From positions 7,492-71,491 of the IMG/VR virus record IMGVR_UViG_3300020236_000046: DNA of 64,000 nt, one strand, 5' to 3'. Below are positions 2,502-46,698 of the stretch, one piece after another. Both the position numbers and the translations under genes were made by a program. Below the pieces are notes generated by a model. The model saw only the letters and a program-made list of their open reading frames with translations, made no database searches and was not told the origin of the DNA. Origin of the DNA: a virus. Lineage: Duplodnaviria; Caudoviricetes. Numbering within the stretch: position 1 is the stretch's first letter; every line of letters starts with the position of its first letter.

Positions 2502-2729
2502 ATGGTAATAAATGAAACAAGATATGTAAGGCCAGTAGATGGGGTGACTGTTAGATTCCCTGATACTAAAACACCATTGCCATTGGATGGTGCGGTAGTT
2601 CCCTGGGATAGTTATTGGAGGAGGCGGTATAAGGACGGAAGTATTGCGATAATTCTTGCAACTCCACCTGTAGAAGATAATGAATCAGTAAAACAAGAAA
2701 CAAAATCTAATAAAAGGAGGAAATACTAA
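2502..2729 (+). CDS. DUF2635 family protein (Mu gp38-like)
   Basis: 'YVRPVDGVTVRFP..PLPLDGAVVPWDSYWRRRYKDGSI'; directly upstream of sheath. Confidence 0.85.
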   Translation: MVINETRYVRPVDGVTVRFPDTKTPLPLDGAVVPWDSYWRRRYKDGSIAIILATPPVEDNESVKQETKSNKRRKY

Positions 2730-4207
2730 TGGCCATTTCGTTTAACAATATCCCGAATACCATAAGGACGCCCGGTGGATATGTAGAGATAGATAATTCA
2801 AGAGCACTGAAAGGGTTGACGGCAAATCCGCACAAGGTTCTAATTTTAGGGCAAAAAGAAACAGATGGCACGGAGTCAGCTGATACTCTTATTGCTATAA
2901 GTAAGGAAAATATGGCCAATGGATTCTTTGGCCCCGGAAGTATTCTCGCGCGTATGTGTAATGCGTTTAAGAATGCGAATCCTAATACTGAATTATGGGC
3001 CATGATTCTGCCGGAAAATGGAGCAGGAGCAGTTGCATCAGGAGATATAAATATAACAGGTTCCGCATCAGGGGCCGGTACTGCATATCTTTTTATAGGT
3101 GGTGTGCAGGTTTACACTCCTGTAACGTCAGGATGGTCAGGAACCGATGTAGCATCGGCTATGAAATCGGATGTCAATGCGAATTCATTGCTCTGTATGA
3201 AAGCGTCTGGCCCTGTATCTGCTGATAGAATGACTCTGATCGCACGTGCGAGTTGTGCTTTAGGTAATCAGTTTGATTTTCGCTTTAATTATTATGAAGG
3301 ACAAAGTAATCCGATAGGAATAACATTCAGTACAGTAGGCATGACAGGTGGTGCGGCTAACCCGACTTTAGCAGGTACATGGGCGGTTATTGCTAATGAG
3401 CAATTTCAGCATGTTATTCAGCCTTATACGGATGCCGCAAATCTTACTTCTTTAGAAGGTGAACTAGCGACTCGGTTCGGGCCTTTAGTTGATTTGCAGG
3501 GTCATGGATATGTTGCTGAAAGGGCAACACAGGCAAGTGCGACTACTTTAGGTAATTCACGTAACAGTCCGCATAATACAATTATGGGGTATAACAACAG
3601 TCCTACGAATCCGGATGAATGGTCTGCAATAATGGGTGCGGTAGCATCATACAATCTTAATGTTGATCCTGCGCGACCTTTGCATTTCTTGAAATTGAAA
3701 GGGATACTGCCTCCTCCGGTTACGGATCGGTTTACAAGGGCTGAAAGAGATATTCTGTTATATGACGGGATTTCTACTTTTGTTGTAGATAATGGCGGTA
3801 ATGTTCTTATTGAAAGAATGCTGACTACTTATCAGACTAATGCTCTAGGAATTACCGATGTCTCCTATCTTGATATACAAACGCTGTTTACTTTGATGGA
3901 AATCAGGTATCAATATAAACTTAGGATGATAAACAGATTTATCATTCCGAGATTCAAGTTGGCGGATGATTCATTTCAGGTACAGCCGGGAAGCAAGGTA
4001 GCGACTCCGAGTATAGTCAAGCAGGAAACTATTGCTCTATTTTCATTATTGGCGGAAGTTGCTTTGATAGAAAATCTAAGTGAGTTTGTTGATAATTTGG
4101 TGGTCGAAAGAGACGTTACGGATGTGAATCGTGTAAACGTTCTCTTACCTCCAAATTTAATAAACCAATTTCGCCTCCTTTCTGCGCAGATACAATTTAT
4201 TTTGTAG
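2729..4207 (+). CDS. Tail sheath protein (Mu gpL-like)
   Basis: 'MAISFNNIPNTIRTPGGYVEIDNSRA', 'DPARPLHFLKL', 'ERMLTTYQTN', 'DVNRVNVLLPPNLINQFR'. Confidence 0.95.
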   Translation: MAISFNNIPNTIRTPGGYVEIDNSRALKGLTANPHKVLILGQKETDGTESADTLIAISKENMANGFFGPGSILARMCNAFKNANPNTELWAMILPENGAGAVASGDINITGSASGAGTAYLFIGGVQVYTPVTSGWSGTDVASAMKSDVNANSLLCMKASGPVSADRMTLIARASCALGNQFDFRFNYYEGQSNPIGITFSTVGMTGGAANPTLAGTWAVIANEQFQHVIQPYTDAANLTSLEGELATRFGPLVDLQGHGYVAERATQASATTLGNSRNSPHNTIMGYNNSPTNPDEWSAIMGAVASYNLNVDPARPLHFLKLKGILPPPVTDRFTRAERDILLYDGISTFVVDNGGNVLIERMLTTYQTNALGITDVSYLDIQTLFTLMEIRYQYKLRMINRFIIPRFKLADDSFQVQPGSKVATPSIVKQETIALFSLLAEVALIENLSEFVDNLVVERDVTDVNRVNVLLPPNLINQFRLLSAQIQFIL

Positions 4208-4224
4208 TATTATGTTTATTATTT

Positions 4225-5067
4225 ATGAGCTGTTTTGTAAAGGAGATTTGTATATTGCATAGTTGTAGTTATTGTAAACGTCCAGCTAAGGTTCGTTTTA
4301 AGACAGGTAAACGGAGTTGGTGTTGTGAAGACAATATTGCTAAATGTCCTGCTATAAGAGCAAGGAATAGTCGAACAGCAAAAAAGCTAGTTGGTTGGAA
4401 GCACAGTAAAGCAACCAGGCAAAAAATGTCAGAAGCACAGAAAGGCAGGATTATAACGGATGAACATAGAAAGCGATTAAGTGAATCTCATTTAGGTATG
4501 AAGCATACGGAGAAAGCTAAAGCTACAATGAGAGGCCGTATTCCATGGAATAAGGGAAAAACTGATGTATATTCTGATGAAACTAGAAATCAGATATCTA
4601 ATTCATTAAAGGGTAATATTCCATGGAATAAAGGTAAACCCAGATCAAAGAAAACTAGGAAAAAGATTAGTTTATCTCATGTTGGTAAGGTTCTTTCTAT
4701 TGAACATCGACAAGCCATTGGTGATGCCCATAAAGGTCAGAAACGAAGTATAGAAACTCGATTAAAGATGAGTCAAGTGGCTGCAGGTAAGAATAGTTCT
4801 CAATGGAAAGGTGGGATTGCAAAAGAACCTTATTCTCAAGAATGGACTGTTGAGTTAAAGGAGCGTATTAAAAAAAGAGATAATCATTGTTGTCAAAATC
4901 CTGATTGTTGGCAGAGTAATACTAGATTAACTGTACATCATATAGATTACAATAAGAAAAATTGTAATTTAAGAAATCTAATTACTTTATGTGCCAGTTG
5001 TAATAGTAGGGCGAATGCTGATAGAGGGTTTTGGCGGAAACATTATAAACAAATTGTAAACGAATAA
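4225..5067 (+). mobile_element. Free-standing NUMOD3-repeat HNH homing endonuclease
   Basis: Repeated 'HSxxTRxKIS/PWNKG' NUMOD3 motifs; C-terminal 'WKGGI..EPY..RDNHCCQ..VHHIDYNKKN..NLITLCASC'. Confidence 0.9.
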
Positions 5068-5906: not shown

Positions 5907-7969
5907 TGCCGGGAGAAACATTTTCTTTAAGTGTCCTGTTTAAAGTTATAAACAGAGCGACTGCTCCGATGAGAAAGATTGTACGTCAGTTTAATGTGAT
6001 GGGAGTAGCGGCTAAAAAGCTAGGCGGTCACATGCTGTCATTAGGTCAGCAGATGCTGATTGTTGGCCGCGTATTGGCATTTGCAATTACTTTACCTATT
6101 ATATTATTAGGTAGATTGGCGGTTAAATCTGCTGTTGATTTTCAAAAATCATTTACAGGTATCCGTAAAACTGTAGATGCTACGGTAGAGCAATTCAAGC
6201 AGTTGAAAAATGAACTTATTGATATGTCTACAAAAATACCAGTCACTACGGAGGAACTATTTACTATTGGGGAAGCGGCGGGACAGATGGGAGTTAAGAT
6301 TGGGGAGTTAAAAGAATTTACCCGTGTTATTGCCGATTTAGGAGTGTCTACAAAAGATTTAAGAGGGGAAGAAGCCGCTTTTTTCTTATCAAGATTCGCT
6401 AATATCACGGGGATGAACAGGAAGGAATTTCATAATCTTGCTTCCGTTATTGTTAAATTGGGTAATGATTATGCTACATCGGAAGGTCAGATAGCGAAAA
6501 TGGGTTTGATGCTTGCGGCACAAGGCAGAAGGGCGGGATTAGCAGCGGAAGAAATTTTAGGTATGGCTTCCTCTTTGACTTCACTTGGGATCAGGGCTGA
6601 ACGGGGGGGCAGTGCTTTTTCAAGAGTCATGCAATTTATGACTACAGCGGTATTGCGAAAAGGTGGAGAAGAATTAGCCCTTTTTTCTAGGACAGCTGGA
6701 AAATCTGTACAAGAGTTCAGTAAAGTATATAAGGAAAATCCTATAAAAGCGATAATAGCGTTTATTGATGGTCTTACTGCTATGGAGAGTAGGGGCAAGG
6801 ATACCTCATTACTATTGCAAAGACTTGGATTTGGCGGTATACGGCTTACCGATGTTCTAGGGCGTGTTACATCGGCAACGGCGAATTTTAGTGATCATAT
6901 CGCTACTGTTTCAAAAGAGATGGTAGAAAATAAGGCTTTAATAATAGAATCTAATAAATACTATGAAACTATGTGGGGACGTTTTGTTTTAGTAGGGAAT
7001 GAATTGAATCTTTTAGCCCGGTCATTTGGGCTTGTTCTTGCTCCCACAATTTTAACTGTTCTCAAAACGGCAATAGTCCCATTAATCAGATGGATGCGCG
7101 AATGGCATACAGCTACAAAAATAGTATCTATTGGGTTTCTTGGTTTTGTTGCTATATTAGGCCCCTTAATAATTCTCTTGGCTGTGATGATAAAAAGTGT
7201 AGGAATAATATTATTAGCATCAGTTGAATTAACATGGGTATTTACAAAGGTTAAAATAGCTGTGTTGGCTGTTTGGGCGGTCTTTTCTACGTATCTTGGG
7301 ACTATTGCATTAGTAGTTGTAGCGATTGTCGCTGTAAGTTGGGCTGTTTATCAGCTTGTAAAGAATTGGGATGCGCTTAAAGATACGTTAGCTGGTAAAG
7401 CTATTATTGCTGTTATAGGAGCACTTTCAGCTTTACTTATCGGAGCATTTATTGGGATGTTTCCTCTTATTGCCGCTGTTACATTTGCGTTTGTATCTCT
7501 AGCTAATGTTGCTAGATTAGTAATAAAAGAGTGGGGGCCGGTAAAAATCTTTTTTGAGGATTTCTTGGCAACAATTAAAGAGTTTGCAGATATAGGGCCG
7601 CTCAAAACCCTTTTAAAACTATATAAAGATGCAAAGTTTTTATTAAGCCCTACTTGGGTTTCTGGTGCAGAAGATAAAGGAAAGACGGTAGAAGGCGCAA
7701 AGGCATTAGGCAGACAACAGCTGCGTGGGCTATCTGCATCAGGCGTATTTATACCGGAACAGGATATTCGTAAAGTTATTTCTTCTATAATAAAACGCCC
7801 GGCCCCGGCGTATCCTACTAAACAAGAACCTTCTAATATTGAGGTTCTTGTTAAGGTGCAATCAAACGCCCATGCGGAAGTGACTGTAGGAGCTGTAAAA
7901 AAGAGTTCTAATGTTGGTTTTAGGGTACAAGAATTAGGTGATATGTTAACTGCTGGGGATGTCCCATAA
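5906..7969 (+). CDS. Tape measure protein (TP901-family core)
   Basis: 'SAVDFQKSFTGIRKTV', 'EELFTIGEAAGQMG', 'AERGGSAFSR', hydrophobic C-terminal repeats; start placed at ATG 5906 (track starts at 5894). Confidence 0.95.
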   Translation: MPGETFSLSVLFKVINRATAPMRKIVRQFNVMGVAAKKLGGHMLSLGQQMLIVGRVLAFAITLPIILLGRLAVKSAVDFQKSFTGIRKTVDATVEQFKQLKNELIDMSTKIPVTTEELFTIGEAAGQMGVKIGELKEFTRVIADLGVSTKDLRGEEAAFFLSRFANITGMNRKEFHNLASVIVKLGNDYATSEGQIAKMGLMLAAQGRRAGLAAEEILGMASSLTSLGIRAERGGSAFSRVMQFMTTAVLRKGGEELALFSRTAGKSVQEFSKVYKENPIKAIIAFIDGLTAMESRGKDTSLLLQRLGFGGIRLTDVLGRVTSATANFSDHIATVSKEMVENKALIIESNKYYETMWGRFVLVGNELNLLARSFGLVLAPTILTVLKTAIVPLIRWMREWHTATKIVSIGFLGFVAILGPLIILLAVMIKSVGIILLASVELTWVFTKVKIAVLAVWAVFSTYLGTIALVVVAIVAVSWAVYQLVKNWDALKDTLAGKAIIAVIGALSALLIGAFIGMFPLIAAVTFAFVSLANVARLVIKEWGPVKIFFEDFLATIKEFADIGPLKTLLKLYKDAKFLLSPTWVSGAEDKGKTVEGAKALGRQQLRGLSASGVFIPEQDIRKVISSIIKRPAPAYPTKQEPSNIEVLVKVQSNAHAEVTVGAVKKSSNVGFRVQELGDMLTAGDVP

Positions 7970-42472: not shown

Positions 42473-42502
42473 ACTATAGCTATTTCTGTTTGTTTCATTT
42501 AA
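42473..42502 (-). promoter_or_regulatory. Phage promoter motif TTAAATGAAA-N12-GCTATAGT (copy 3)
   Basis: Same 10-mer and spacer. Confidence 0.7.
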
Positions 42503-43713
42503 GTCTGGATTAGTCGTTTTAAAATTAATCCAATTACAGGCACACTCATAGCATTCCCGCAAGTTCTATACCGTTGCGTGTCTGATATAGATATTCCGTT
42601 GCCACTATCATCAATTCCTTTAGCAGTAAATAAATCAGGGAATCCTTGTAATCTCTCTACCTCAATTGGGGTTAGGCGACGGATACTGCCATACTTGTCT
42701 CCGACTTCCAGCGTTCTGCTTGCGCATAGACACGTTCGACCAGGTTTCGTCTTCCCCATAACCCATAGTTGCGGGTTTATTAACTTTGGAATATGTCCTG
42801 TCGTTATCGCATCTATCTGGTCGAAAGGCTTATGAAATATTAGTTCTTGGACTGTTGACCGTTTTTTATCTTTTTGATATGCAAATATTCGCTTATCGGT
42901 TTCGACCCAGCCAGCAACACGTTTCGTTTTTATAAACGGAGTATGGTTCCCACCGCTTCCTGTCGGTAATGTAGGGGATATTCCATCATCACTGTAAATT
43001 CTGTCCTGGTAGTGGGGAGCATTCTCGTCTACTCTTTTTATCAAAGTAGACATATCATCATTTACACCTGCCGCTCTTAGACTTGAGATATATTGAGACT
43101 TGTGATTCCGAATCCGTGTCCTTTTTTTCTTTCCCTGTCTTTGTGTTTCAATAAGATATTTATCGTCTTCTGTGACAGGAAATACTTGCGGTCTGGGTTT
43201 TCCTCTAAAATGCCCGACAAAGTAAATCCGCGCTCGATTTTGGGGCCGAAACCACCTTGTATTAAGAATTTGCCATTGACAGTCATACCCCACGTCGGTG
43301 AGCATTCTAATTGATTCGTAGAAGTCGTAACCTTCATTAACACTGAAAAGTCCCGGCACGTTTTCAGCAATGAAATATTCGGGCTTTTTAATCCGCAGAA
43401 TTCTAACCGCTTCACTAAGTAAACCGCTTCTAGTACCTTCTTTTTGCCCTTTGCGGTTTCCAGCAATCGAATTATCCTGGCAAGGCCATCCGAAAATGAG
43501 ACAGTTGAATTTGACTTTTGGAAGAAACCCTTTAACATCTTTGTCTACCTCGAATTCAGGTTTAAATCTATAACGATATATTGCCCTTGCATATTTATCC
43601 TTTTCACACGCCCCTACTATTTTATACGGTAATTTGTATTGCCTTATAGCTTCATGTGGTGCCCCTATCCCGGCAAAAAGCTCATATGTTTTCATAATAA
43701 ATCTAAAACCCAA
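42499..43713 (-). CDS. DNA (cytosine-5) methyltransferase
   Basis: I 'FAGIGA', IV 'GWPCQDNS', VI 'ENVPG', VIII 'QNRARIY', IX 'RRLTPIEVERLQGFP', X 'GNAMSV'. Confidence 0.95.
   Translation of the reverse strand: MGFRFIMKTYELFAGIGAPHEAIRQYKLPYKIVGACEKDKYARAIYRYRFKPEFEVDKDVKGFLPKVKFNCLIFGWPCQDNSIAGNRKGQKEGTRSGLLSEAVRILRIKKPEYFIAENVPGLFSVNEGYDFYESIRMLTDVGYDCQWQILNTRWFRPQNRARIYFVGHFRGKPRPQVFPVTEDDKYLIETQRQGKKKRTRIRNHKSQYISSLRAAGVNDDMSTLIKRVDENAPHYQDRIYSDDGISPTLPTGSGGNHTPFIKTKRVAGWVETDKRIFAYQKDKKRSTVQELIFHKPFDQIDAITTGHIPKLINPQLWVMGKTKPGRTCLCASRTLEVGDKYGSIRRLTPIEVERLQGFPDLFTAKGIDDSGNGISISDTQRYRTCGNAMSVPVIGLILKRLIQT
43077..43538 (-). CDS. Overlapping +1-frame polypeptide inside the C5 MTase (EcoHK31I beta-like)
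   Basis: 153-codon open frame, GAGGT SD; 'CSPTWGMTVNGKFL', 'LSGILEENPDRKYFLSQK' resembles post-motif-VIII MTase sequence. Confidence 0.65.
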   Translation of the reverse strand: MLKGFFQKSNSTVSFSDGLARIIRLLETAKGKKKVLEAVYLVKRLEFCGLKSPNISLLKTCRDFSVLMKVTTSTNQLECSPTWGMTVNGKFLIQGGFGPKIERGFTLSGILEENPDRKYFLSQKTINILLKHKDRERKKGHGFGITSLNISQV

Positions 43714-44230
43714 TCTTTTTTACTGATTTTTCTATCGTTATTATTGTGTCATTATGAGGGCCGCCGTGGGGGACAAGCAATATCTCAATTATCTCAAATC
43801 CGTTTGTTTTTCCTATACCGCCAGAATTCCAGCCACACGAAAGAACCAGTCCTCCCGGCCTTATTATTCTGGCAATTTCATCTTTAAGTTCCCGCCAATA
43901 TGAACTTTGGGTTGTTTTCGTATTAACGGAGTATCCCAGCTTTTTGTAACTTTCAGAAACTTGGCGCACGCTATAGGGCGGATCATAAAATACAAAATCC
44001 ACTGAGTTGTCATCGAAATCTCGTAGAAATTTCACCGCATCTTGGTTTGACTCTGTTTGATATTGCGGGTCTAGGTCGTTTAATATTTTTGCTATTTTAT
44101 TACTATTGGCAAAAGGGTCTATTGAAAACATTGATTTGTCATGGTAACGCTCAATAATTTCTCTTATTGGTTTTATGCTGAAAGTATTTTTATTGGGCAT
44201 TGCCCAAATACGATTAAATTTAATATTCAT
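43703..44230 (-). CDS. Small amino (N6-adenine/N4-cytosine) DNA methyltransferase
   Basis: 'IDPFAN', catalytic 'FYDPPYS', 'IIRPGG', 'HGGPHNDTI'. Confidence 0.85.
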   Translation of the reverse strand: MNIKFNRIWAMPNKNTFSIKPIREIIERYHDKSMFSIDPFANSNKIAKILNDLDPQYQTESNQDAVKFLRDFDDNSVDFVFYDPPYSVRQVSESYKKLGYSVNTKTTQSSYWRELKDEIARIIRPGGLVLSCGWNSGGIGKTNGFEIIEILLVPHGGPHNDTIITIEKSVKKIGF

Positions 44231-46698
44231 AAATAACTTCCCAATATCACACGCCCAATTTCACGGCACTCAAGTACCTTAACCGTCTGCCTGGAATCCT
44301 TTTCGTCACGCACCATCATTTTACCTATTCTTAATAATCCCTTTTCCTTTTCTTCTTCCGTCTGATTCAATGTAAGAACCATTGTAGTATGTCCCCGCTT
44401 CCGTTTATCCTCACTAAAATCATCTATATTGATCCTCTTTTTCTTATATGACGATGCGGCGGATTGAGTAGCGGTCAATAATAAAATATTTCTCTCTTGT
44501 GATAATGCTCTCATGGATTTCCATGTAGCATTTATACTGTGCCGGAATTCTTTTGAAGCCTCCGGTTCTGTTCCTAGATTATCCGCATAATCAATGCAAT
44601 TATGCGCTAAAACTCCTTGCACAGTGAAGCGATGAAATTGTCCGGCGTTTCTAATATCCCATACCCTCTCCTTTTGTATGGTTTTCTTTTCCATCTTACT
44701 ACGACTTCTTTTATCGTCATTTTTTTGAAATATTGCCTTAATGTTCCGTCCGAATATTTCACAAAAGGATAGACCTGCCGAAACCGATAAATCTTTGCTT
44801 TTGTCATGGGTTTTCTTGTGTGCAAACAATTTTGTCGATGAGTAGACCATCTTATATTTCCAGGTTCGTAATGACCATTGTTGTTTATGCGGTCTAATTC
44901 CAATTTTTTGTTTTCCGGTATCCCCAAATTTTCCTTTATCCATAAACAAGCCTCTGATATACTTTGAAATTTGAACTCGATTCCCCTTTGTCCATAATCC
45001 TTCCAACCCGAAGCTTTTGGGTTTACACATCTGATCTGCATAGCTTGAACTCGGTTGTATAACCATGAAGGGAATCTTTTTGGCTGTAAACACGCTCGAC
45101 AGCCTTTTGCAATACCCCGCCGCAAGTTTCCATATAATACCCATTTTTCTCTTCCACATTGCGTACATTGTATATGGACATAATAAGCGTATTGCTTTTT
45201 CCCCTTTTTGCTCCTTTTTCTTTCTCGTATTCGCACTATCGGAGATATAATTTTCGCCAATCCATATATTTCGTCCAGCACATTCGGTTTGTGCAATTGA
45301 TAATCCCAATCTTTTGCACGACTCAAGACTTCTCCAACCATCTTCTTTTGTCCAAAATAAGTGATTGGATGTAGCTCTAATTCCTGCATATTCGATAATC
45401 TCCTTTTCACCTTTATATATTATCCCGTCATGTGATACCCAAGATAGGCCATCCCATAATCGGTCATTTTTGTTTATTTGTTCAATTGGTATCATTCCTC
45501 GTTCTTTTGTTAAAACTAATGAACCTTCTGGAATGCAAACTACATCTGAAATAAATCCTTCAGACTTTTCCAAGTAATCCAACTGTGTTCGTATATCCAT
45601 TACGTTGATAGCCCCTGCGGGATAGGTAAACAGTTTAAATCTTTTTCCACGCGCTCTTTCCTGTCGTTCTTTGCCTTGATTGAAAGCGTGTCTCCAGCTT
45701 TTAACAGGCTCTACTTCGATATATTTATGCCATAATGCCCCTTTATATGCTTTTGGTTCTTCTTTCTTACAGTATATACAAAGGGCATACCCTTCCTCCT
45801 CCGCCTCTTTCAGACTAATAAGTTTTTCCCCTTTATCATTTTTTATAAACACACCAACATTAGATTTCCGTTCTCTTTTTTCACACGTATCATTTTGGTT
45901 ATGATAACAATCCAATACAGGCATCTTTATTATGCCTGAAAATCTGCGTGTATTCTTGGTTATATTCATATAGATACGCCTTATCACTTGCAGATCACTC
46001 ATATCCCCTACTATAAAATAGGCGACATTACACAATGATCTGTGAGCGCGTAAAGCGAGTTCCATCAACCAATACGATTTACCTCTTTTTTCCGGCCCTT
46101 CAATAGATACAAAATTATCACGTTCAAACGGCCTAACAAAACGTCCTAAATCACCTGGTAATTGAAACAGTATATTTCTTTCTAGCTGATCGAACGCTTC
46201 CTTTACTATATCTTTATCCTGAAATACATTAATGCCTTTATTTGCCGGACGTTCAACTCGCTTATACGCTTCAATAAGTTTTTCAGCTTCTTTTGTATTT
46301 CCTTTTGTCAGATAATTAGCGACATCTTCATTAACCGTTTTTAAATGCTGTGATTTAAGATATGATTCAGCTTGATCAAGTATATACCGCACATTGAATT
46401 TTTCCGCCCGCTCATATTCATCACTCAAATCCGCTAAAAAGGATTCAATAAATTCTGACTGTTCTTCAGGTAAGCCTTTACGTTTTTCACTGTTATATAT
46501 ATCCTGTATATGCTGTTTAGGTGCTTTGCCATACTGCGTATAATAGTTGAAACACCAATCAGCTAATTTACGAACATAAGACATCGAAATGAGGTCAGGG
46601 CTGTATATTGATTCTATGCCTTCAATGAAATGCTTGTTAACTATTAACCCTGTTGCAATCTGTTTTTCAATCTGATTATCAACCTTTCGTATTCTCAT
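44227..46698 (-). CDS. Replicative DnaB-like helicase precursor containing an intein
   Basis: Walker A 'GPEKRGKS'; Walker B reconstituted as DVV|CIDYAD after removing intein; 'TATQS', 'FSEDKRK'. Confidence 0.9.
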   Translation of the reverse strand: MRIRKVDNQIEKQIATGLIVNKHFIEGIESIYSPDLISMSYVRKLADWCFNYYTQYGKAPKQHIQDIYNSEKRKGLPEEQSEFIESFLADLSDEYERAEKFNVRYILDQAESYLKSQHLKTVNEDVANYLTKGNTKEAEKLIEAYKRVERPANKGINVFQDKDIVKEAFDQLERNILFQLPGDLGRFVRPFERDNFVSIEGPEKRGKSYWLMELALRAHRSLCNVAYFIVGDMSDLQVIRRIYMNITKNTRRFSGIIKMPVLDCYHNQNDTCEKRERKSNVGVFIKNDKGEKLISLKEAEEEGYALCIYCKKEEPKAYKGALWHKYIEVEPVKSWRHAFNQGKERQERARGKRFKLFTYPAGAINVMDIRTQLDYLEKSEGFISDVVCIPEGSLVLTKERGMIPIEQINKNDRLWDGLSWVSHDGIIYKGEKEIIEYAGIRATSNHLFWTKEDGWRSLESCKRLGLSIAQTECAGRNIWIGENYISDSANTRKKKEQKGEKAIRLLCPYTMYAMWKRKMGIIWKLAAGYCKRLSSVFTAKKIPFMVIQPSSSYADQMCKPKSFGLEGLWTKGNRVQISKYIRGLFMDKGKFGDTGKQKIGIRPHKQQWSLRTWKYKMVYSSTKLFAHKKTHDKSKDLSVSAGLSFCEIFGRNIKAIFQKNDDKRSRSKMEKKTIQKERVWDIRNAGQFHRFTVQGVLAHNCIDYADNLGTEPEASKEFRHSINATWKSMRALSQERNILLLTATQSAASSYKKKRINIDDFSEDKRKRGHTTMVLTLNQTEEEKEKGLLRIGKMMVRDEKDSRQTVKVLECREIGRVILGSYL
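44599..45537 (-). mobile_element. Intein (313 aa) inserted in helicase Walker B
   Basis: N-terminal C-IPEGSLV, block B 'ATSNH', block F 'VWDI', C-terminal 'HRFTVQGVLAHN', +1 Cys. Confidence 0.92.
44607..45389 (-). CDS. HNH homing endonuclease encoded in the +1 frame inside the intein
   Basis: AAGGAG SD; 'CTQCG..GCRAC', 'RCVNP..WKDYGQRGI', 'LDRINNNGHYEPGNIRWST..QN'. Confidence 0.88.
   Translation of the reverse strand: MQELELHPITYFGQKKMVGEVLSRAKDWDYQLHKPNVLDEIYGLAKIISPIVRIRERKRSKKGKKQYAYYVHIQCTQCGREKWVLYGNLRRGIAKGCRACLQPKRFPSWLYNRVQAMQIRCVNPKASGWKDYGQRGIEFKFQSISEACLWIKENLGIPENKKLELDRINNNGHYEPGNIRWSTHRQNCLHTRKPMTKAKIYRFRQVYPFVKYSDGTLRQYFKKMTIKEVVVRWKRKPYKRRGYGILETPDNFIASLCKEF

Follow-up and report, generated by a model that had tools for sequence, protein, structure and literature searches.

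An HNH-like gene overprinted in the +1 frame of a phage helicase intein is under frame-specific purifying selection

How can the central part of an intein that shows no recognisable endonuclease in the reading frame of its host gene remain free of stop codons, and what does the same DNA encode in the neighbouring frame? This question is raised by a helicase gene in the phage record IMGVR_UViG_3300020236_000046 (Duplodnaviria; Caudoviricetes), from which we analysed a stretch of 64,000 nt (positions 7,492 to 71,491 of the record, hereafter the window). The window makes up most of a phage genome of 71,491 bp, which is recorded in IMG/VR as complete with direct terminal repeats, and the sole sequencing run containing it is a DNA run from a hydrothermal-vent metagenome, which is probably the source sample. 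The helicase gene (46698..44227; this and all other features of the window described here are on the minus strand) is a single open reading frame (ORF) for a precursor of 823 aa, consisting of an N-extein, an intein of 313 codons (45537..44599) and a C-extein. Inside the intein lies a second ORF of 260 aa, which is shifted by one nucleotide (+1 frame, 45389..44607), starts with the ATG at 45389 and stops with a TAG at 44609-44607, and the last base of this TAG is 8 nt from the last base of the intein. We consider it likely that the locus represents a helicase intein with an overprinted and selected HNH-like gene of the homing type, and that the filler encoded by the helicase frame at the same position is removed by splicing.

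The host gene was classified with PHROG as a DnaB-like replicative helicase (phrog_19, E = 1.2e-14), with the match split into two stretches that flank the intein. The N-extein (46698..45538, 387 aa) contains the Walker A motif GPEKRGKS (46098-46075) and has ...SDVV at its C-terminal end, and the C-extein (44598..44227, 123 aa) begins with CIDYADNL, which provides both the Cys at position +1 and the Asp-Tyr of Walker B; the intein is located two residues ahead of the Walker-B Asp, in the strand leading to this Asp-Tyr. Neither the helicase nor the intein nor the +1 ORF had matches in Pfam or NCBIfam, and a sequence search of the PDB with the N-extein profile returned weak matches to the Walker A region of RecA only, so that the helicase class rests on phrog_19.

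The insert itself has all the parts of a class-1 intein. The codon of its N-terminal nucleophile C1 (block A) is at 45537-45535, block B has the sequence TSNH (45372-45361) and matches TxxH, block F reads VWDIRNAG (44664-44641), and the intein ends in VLAHN, with a penultimate His and a terminal Asn, followed by the Cys+1 of CIDYAD. The residues C1, T56, H59, D294 and N313 are invariant in 29/29 aligned inteins. An AlphaFold2 model of the product of the helicase frame (frame 0), based on an alignment of 29 sequences, has predicted local distance difference test (pLDDT) scores of 95-97 at both ends (residues 1-85 and 286-313), and of 37-50 for residues 87-285 between them. When the whole model was used as the query for Foldseek against the PDB, every top match was an intein or other HINT domain, with an E-value of 2e-3 for the intein matches, and the nearest solved folds were Ssp DnaB (1mi8) and Npu DnaE (4kl5), with probability 1.00 and a root-mean-square deviation of 2.2-2.9 Å over ~95 columns. 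Helicase homologues were gathered by an alignment-based scan of IMG/VR with the N-extein, and the 79 nearest of these (31-43% identical) are all uninterrupted at this site, where they read PDV[VI][VI][IV]DYAD. With blocks A, B and F/G, a HINT fold and an in-frame insertion at a conserved site, the insert is a real class-1 intein, from which we infer that it undergoes protein splicing. The initial annotation of this DNA, made from the sequence without database searches, had placed a 313-aa intein in the Walker B of a helicase and a 260-aa ORF in the +1 frame, which overlaps block B and stops just before the end of the intein, and the coordinates, motifs and intein-free homologues all agree with this description.

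The helicase frame contains no stop codons across the +1 ORF, whereas 24.7 would be expected if the +1 protein is held fixed and its codons are redrawn from the codon usage of the phage itself; not one of 20,000 such draws was free of stops (analytic P ~1e-14). The absence of stops is reflected in the choice of +1 codons, as T is never used at their third position ahead of a codon starting with AA, AG or GA (0/80), compared to 59/179 elsewhere. Taken together, the lack of stops and the avoidance of T mean that the helicase frame is actively kept open. We also considered whether the frame could be open by chance, as may occur in GC-rich DNA, and rejected this since the GC content of the window is 37% and 22 stops interrupt the third frame within the intein. 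The layout, an intein with a separate gene in its +1 frame, is real and beyond chance, and it is not confined to the window. A set of 37 related inteins was drawn from IMG/VR, from isolate-derived phage records and from further assemblies, and these homologues avoid stops in both frames, with no stops in the host frame in 37/37 and an open +1 ORF of 192-305 codons in 36/37, leaving only the intein of contig L045, which has its ORF in the +2 frame. These +1 ORFs end close to the end of the intein, mostly within ~5 codons and in a few cases up to ~20.

The variation among these inteins shows which frame is selected for its protein product, and from the comparison of 36 of them it is clear that the most variable codon position flips twice along the intein, near codons ~75 and ~285. 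In intein codons 1-75 (45537..45313), which form the N-terminal splicing domain, it is the third position of frame 0 that varies most, and hence the helicase frame that is selected. In codons 76-285 (45312..44683), which encode filler in the helicase frame but make up the core of the +1 gene, it is the third position of the +1 frame, pointing to selection on the +1 protein, and in codons 286-313 (44682..44599), containing blocks F and G and overlapping the tail of the +1 ORF, it is again the third position of frame 0, with the helicase frame selected. The central 630 nt encode a frame-0 sequence rich in K, S and R and without a confident fold. Among the 29 aligned inteins this frame-0 middle is unalignable save for R..RQ...LR.G, which is the shadow of the +1 motif DRINNNGHYEPGN under which it lies.

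Substitutions were counted in frame-agnostic nucleotide alignments of 18 closer pairs, and were assigned to those that are synonymous only in the +1 frame or only in frame 0. In the central region these numbered 1394 for the +1 frame versus 343 for frame 0, while the order was reversed in the N-terminal 70 codons (149 versus 431) and in the C-terminal 28 codons (53 versus 117); these totals count sites and not independent events, as the pairs share branches. Near-identical pairs taken singly gave 22 versus 2, 29 versus 3 and 25 versus 9 in the central region, and the comparison of the window with its closest relative L088 (75% nucleotide identity) gave 85 versus 20 in the central region and 1 versus 14 in the N-terminal region. 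The +1 frame is under purifying selection, both in the lineage of the window and family-wide. The view that about 780 nt are constrained in two frames thus needs to be modified: the helicase frame is kept free of stops over this length, but there is no double constraint at the protein level throughout, as the selected frame alternates, and in the middle the amino-acid constraint is on the +1 frame only, with frame 0 policed only against stops.

These results bear on two other explanations of the locus. The +1 ORF could be a decaying relic, in which case the intein would be an immobile mini-intein with a junk middle, and the non-canonical catalytic motif of the +1 protein, described below, is in line with this. 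Against it are the frame-specific purifying selection in the lineage of the window and in the whole family, the intact ORF in 36/37 inteins from genomes with a GC content ranging from 0.38 to 0.67, and the confident predicted fold of the +1 protein, and we therefore regard a relic as very improbable. The second possibility is that errors in sequencing or assembly introduced frameshifts, and that the endonuclease domain is truly in frame. The genome is indeed a metagenome assembly, but ~40 independent assemblies, some of them prophages in isolate genomes, would all have to carry a pair of compensating indels at the same two positions, and the +1 ORF continues through blocks F and G, where frame 0 is the selected frame, and stops only 8 nt short of the intein end. 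We give such errors next to no credence.

Translation of the +1 gene would require a start site within the helicase gene. The sequence AAGGAG, resembling a Shine-Dalgarno (SD) site and recognised as such in the initial annotation, is present 10 nt ahead of the +1 ATG (45405-45400), and also encodes a Lys-Glu pair of the intein, using the codons AAG and GAG which are both in the minority in this phage (23% and 16%). The +1 codon that overlaps the conserved Tyr ahead of block B is ATG in 21/37 inteins, and in many of these a +1 stop precedes the ATG by 2-3 codons. Of the inteins with this ATG, 15/21 have an SD-like core 5-20 nt upstream, compared to 1/16 of those without, and the latter have another ATG or a GTG within about 8 codons. 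As no sigma-70-like promoter was seen on the minus strand just upstream of the +1 start, translation is assumed to be from the helicase mRNA, and internal initiation on this mRNA would be the simplest reading. Alternatively, the +1 frame could be reached by programmed ribosomal frameshifting, resulting in a fusion of N-extein, N-terminal part of the intein and HNH-like protein. This would fit with the 16/37 relatives that do not have the ATG at the conserved position, and with a +1 frame that in some members opens well before this point, as in L010, where it does so at intein codon 10. However, the stops directly ahead of the ATG, the way in which the SD-like core tracks the ATG, and the nearby start codons in the members that do not have this ATG all argue for initiation and make frameshifting improbable.

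The protein predicted from the +1 ORF was next compared to sequence and structure databases. It matches HNH endonuclease families in PHROG (phrog_374 with E = 5e-22, phrog_3377 with 3e-18, and a third family with 7e-12), in addition to a weak match with the PHROG annotation 'endonuclease VII' (5e-4), and has 51 homologues in metagenomes. Its AlphaFold2 model, based on an alignment of 31 sequences, has a mean pLDDT of 83.6, with high values for residues 30-240 and values below 50 only for residues 1-24, which overlap block B. The model consists of a zinc ribbon (CxxC...CxxC), a beta-beta-alpha unit with strands at 164-167 and 179-182 followed by a helix at 184-188, and a helical tail. In BFVD there were 89 structural matches at E<=1e-3, several of which, with E-values down to 4e-11, are annotated as phage HNH/AP2 homing endonucleases. 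In the PDB, Foldseek with the whole model gave no matches at E<=1e-3, and a wide structural alignment using VIA-align reached Z-scores of 5-6 at best. In the core of the protein, C121, Y132, D166, R167, Y174 and N178 are invariant in all 79 embedded and free-standing relatives, and R135 (78/79) and R180 (76/79) are nearly so. N178 is at the position of the structural Asn of HNH enzymes, and position 187, that of the metal ligand in the helix, is N in 42, Q in 34 and S in 3 relatives, while there is no invariant His in the core of the 79 relatives. The Asp/His-His of HNH enzymes is replaced by Asp-Arg family-wide, in L039-L086 as in the window, and also in the 41 free-standing phage genes of the family.

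Several of the observations weigh against the interpretation given at the outset. Where the first strand of HNH enzymes ends in the general-base His, 79/79 relatives have an Arg (D166-R167). None of the Pfam HNH models matches the +1 protein, with HNH_3 reaching an E-value of 0.15 in only 1/31 members, NCBIfam is likewise without a match for it, and among PDB sequences the +1 profile found only a chance zinc-finger match. The best solved nuclease fold is that of PacI (3m7k), with a Z-score of 5.3, which is weak and below the score at which real similarities can be told from common arrangements. No RNA sequencing run containing the stretch was found, and the missing ATG at the conserved position in 16/37 inteins and the shared branches behind the substitution totals count on the same side. 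The +1 protein is HNH-like and not a canonical HNH enzyme, and the alignments indicate that its family has a conserved non-canonical active site, though it is widely annotated as 'HNH endonuclease'. An HNH-like protein is supported by the match with phrog_374 and by the fold, though not by Pfam or NCBIfam, but to speak of a clear HNH endonuclease, as had been done for this ORF, was an overstatement in view of the Arg at the general-base position.

It follows that cleavage of DNA by the +1 protein would be expected from the behaviour of its family, and not from its catalytic residues. The protein could also be made without cleaving DNA, and be a DNA-binding or nicking factor or have some other role, with homing either dependent on another nuclease or ended. 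The Arg in place of the general base, the core without an invariant His and the unmatched canonical HNH models of Pfam are consistent with this, as are several structural neighbours that are annotated as AP2/DNA-binding. On the other hand, the beta-beta-alpha topology appears to be kept in the model, complete with the invariant Asp, the invariant structural Asn and the Asn or Gln in the helix. PacI, the best-ranked match among nuclease folds, is said in the paper on its structure to be an HNH enzyme with a Tyr replacing the His, and two Tyr are invariant in the +1 family. The distribution of the intein, which is sporadic, and its conservation above that of the exteins also fit with active homing, and we consider a non-cleaving protein to be unlikely, albeit worth keeping in mind.

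The same unit of intein and out-of-frame gene was found in about 40 other phage contigs, comprising isolate-derived genomes (Streptococcus Javan prophages and the Gardnerella phage vB_Gva_AB1) and about 35 metagenomic contigs, with a GC content of 0.38-0.67. The unit is present in three host proteins: the DnaB-like helicase, an SF2 helicase and the family-A DNA polymerase (DNA polymerase I, PolA). The DnaB-like helicases with the unit at the same site as in the window are those of L007, L008, L010, L088 and L089, and the insertions in the SF2 helicase adjoin its motif VI. The intein-bearing helicases of L007, L008 and L010 are just 25-31% identical in the N-extein, compared to 58-65% in the splicing domain and 48-53% in the +1 core; the +1 core of L089 is 58% identical, with its N-extein outside the comparison. 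The higher conservation of the intein than of the exteins, combined with the closer helicases being intein-free, would fit with the sporadic occurrence that a mobile element should show.

The two parts of the unit have diverged together, as the identities of the splicing domain and of the +1 core are correlated (Pearson r 0.64), with 0/2000 permutations reaching this r in a Mantel test. In a phylogenetic tree of the 79 relatives, a quick FastTree with midpoint root, the 36 embedded +1 genes and the +2 gene of L045 share one side of a branch with three free-standing genes, and the label 'embedded' requires 2 changes on this tree versus ~26 with shuffled labels, which suggests a single capture of the embedded genes. 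The window is placed by FastTree within a supported clade of six helicase-site inteins. With the +1 gene diverging in step with the splicing domain, and the embedded genes coming close to forming one clade, the unit appears to be old and to have moved between host genes, and is not a recent capture in the phage of the window. This qualifies the proposal that a free-standing HNH gene invaded a mini-intein out of frame and is tolerated with its filler spliced out, which agrees with the stop, wobble and AlphaFold results and with the ~40 contigs, except that the invasion was not recent in this phage. A bolder version would be that all embedded copies go back to one capture, that the pair has since hopped between DnaB-like helicase, SF2 helicase and PolA, and that its driver, having no general-base His of the HNH type, is either a new Tyr- or Arg-assisted nuclease resembling PacI, or achieves homing without a double-strand cut of its own; we see this as a doubtful conjecture.

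Returning to a helicase intein with a selected homing-type gene in its +1 frame, such a unit would operate as follows. The helicase would be made as an 823-aa precursor, from which the intein excises itself and ligates ...SDVV to CIDYAD.... On the same mRNA, ribosomes could start at the internal AAGGAG and ATG just ahead of block B and read the +1 frame, which would yield the 260-aa HNH-like protein, whose family is otherwise commonly encoded by free-standing homing-endonuclease genes of phages. Over the middle 210 codons the +1 frame alone would be selected for its protein, and the basic filler of the helicase frame would be tolerated because it is spliced out, with the helicase frame being the selected one at both ends, where the +1 ORF runs over the splicing blocks. 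The +1 protein would most likely target intein-less helicase alleles between DVV and (V/I)IDY, leading to homing of the unit as a whole.

The related loci include several variants of this organisation. In the Streptococcus phages Javan255 and Javan113 and the Gardnerella phage vB_Gva_AB1 (L001-L003, locus 2531-3457), GenBank names 'DNA polymerase I' only, and the +1 HNH-like ORF of 259-262 codons is unannotated. A metagenome contig from the Joint Genome Institute (JGI), L005, has two dual-coded inteins in tandem in one SF2-helicase-like gene (2869-3765 and 3880-4803), which are ~40 codons apart and have separate +1 HNH-like ORFs of 278 and 266 codons. The PolA intein of L045 (3268-4113), with its HNH-like ORF of 263 codons in the +2 frame, is on a long branch inside the embedded clade, and suggests that the relative frame can shift by indels without the gene becoming in-frame. 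L024 (2895-4774) is a rearranged copy, where an ORF resembling a helix-turn-helix (HTH) or sigma protein continues in frame into the HNH-like ORF downstream of it; its host frame is open only over the part of the intein following block B and the PolA C-extein, and the N-terminal half of the polymerase frame is full of stops. L040 (633-2924) has two inteins in its PolA gene; the HNH-like ORF that overlies the upstream one is grouped with the free-standing genes, outside the embedded clade, and ahead of position 633 the host frame is not open. Finally, in the window itself, the C5 DNA methyltransferase gene adjoining the helicase (42499-43713) contains a nested ORF of 153 codons in another frame (43077-43538).

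Inteins with an ORF in another frame have been described before. Gosselin, Arsenault and Gogarten (bioRxiv 10.1101/2025.01.02.630785) reported actinophage inteins with an endonuclease VII-like ORF (IPR004211) in 'frame 3', located in genes for DNA polymerase, minor capsid protein, terminase and thymidylate synthase, and proposed that these originated from an intein invaded by a free-standing endonuclease gene. They bear out the mention of similar actinobacteriophage inteins in the initial annotation. The two systems have in common an intein in the host frame, a same-strand, shifted ORF of endonuclease type between the splicing blocks, and a host frame that is free of stops but has a centre without recognisable structure. 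They differ in that the ORF studied here is in +1 (frame 2), at the Walker-B site of a DnaB-like helicase in a vent phage, and belongs to an HNH-like family with the pattern 'DR...N...N', for which the endonuclease VII match is the weak one given above; the two families were compared by description. A further case is the large-terminase intein of brucellaphages of the Tb/Pr group, where an out-of-frame HNH gene was noted in passing, without selection analysis, and where a single-nucleotide polymorphism (SNP) changed an amino acid in one frame while being silent in the other (Virol J 2015, PMC4422536). The layout is the same as that of the helicase intein, whereas the host gene is terminase in the brucellaphages and helicase here, with the HNH proteins compared by description.

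Three other systems resemble the locus in part. In phage DNA methylases, the ShiLan domain or Pacc40 insertion conceals an HNH in a shifted frame (Arsenault et al., Genes 2025, PMC11855218). It likewise combines an out-of-frame HNH ORF with an open host frame and has its stop within the last bases of the insertion, but has no splicing domain, so that the filler is kept in the mature protein, whereas here the intein blocks and HINT fold are present and the filler should be removed. An insertion of the ShiLan type was ruled out on the basis of the canonical splicing blocks and the HINT fold. In fractured genes, which Dassa et al. reportedly described in Nucleic Acids Research (NAR) in 2009, a free-standing endonuclease gene is said to be located between the halves of a split intein, with the host gene in two ORFs and the protein restored by trans-splicing. 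The homing gene is in both cases a separate translation unit at the usual insertion point of the endonuclease, but a fractured gene with a split intein was ruled out as the helicase is a single continuous ORF of 823 codons, and the host frame has no stops in all 37 inteins. The helicase intein also resembles those with an in-frame HNH or LAGLIDADG endonuclease (e.g. Ssp DnaB) in its class-1 HINT domain, Cys1, TxxH, terminal HN and Cys+1, and in having a replicative helicase as host, and differs from them in that the endonuclease is a separate product of another frame, and not a domain of the intein. The kind of arrangement is already known from the 2015 note and the 2025 preprint, and the additions made here are the helicase site, the vent-phage lineage, the +1 HNH-like family with its 'DR' motif and the double switch of the selected frame, which agrees with the earlier judgement that any novelty would be mainly in the helicase site and the lineage.

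The Walker-B site of a replicative helicase and a vent-phage lineage thus join the short list of inteins with an overprinted homing gene, and the evidence for frame-specific selection is cleaner than in the papers cited, as the wobble phase flips twice within one ORF. Since gene callers record the host ORF alone, such inteins pass for decaying or mini-inteins, and their endonuclease genes are missed in counts. Overprinting of this kind also offers a natural test of the sequence space that is open to an unselected but stop-free frame, and it supports the view of intein origin in which splicing came first and the endonuclease was captured later. Biochemical attention is merited by the +1 protein family, which has lost the general-base His throughout, yet still acts like a homing gene.

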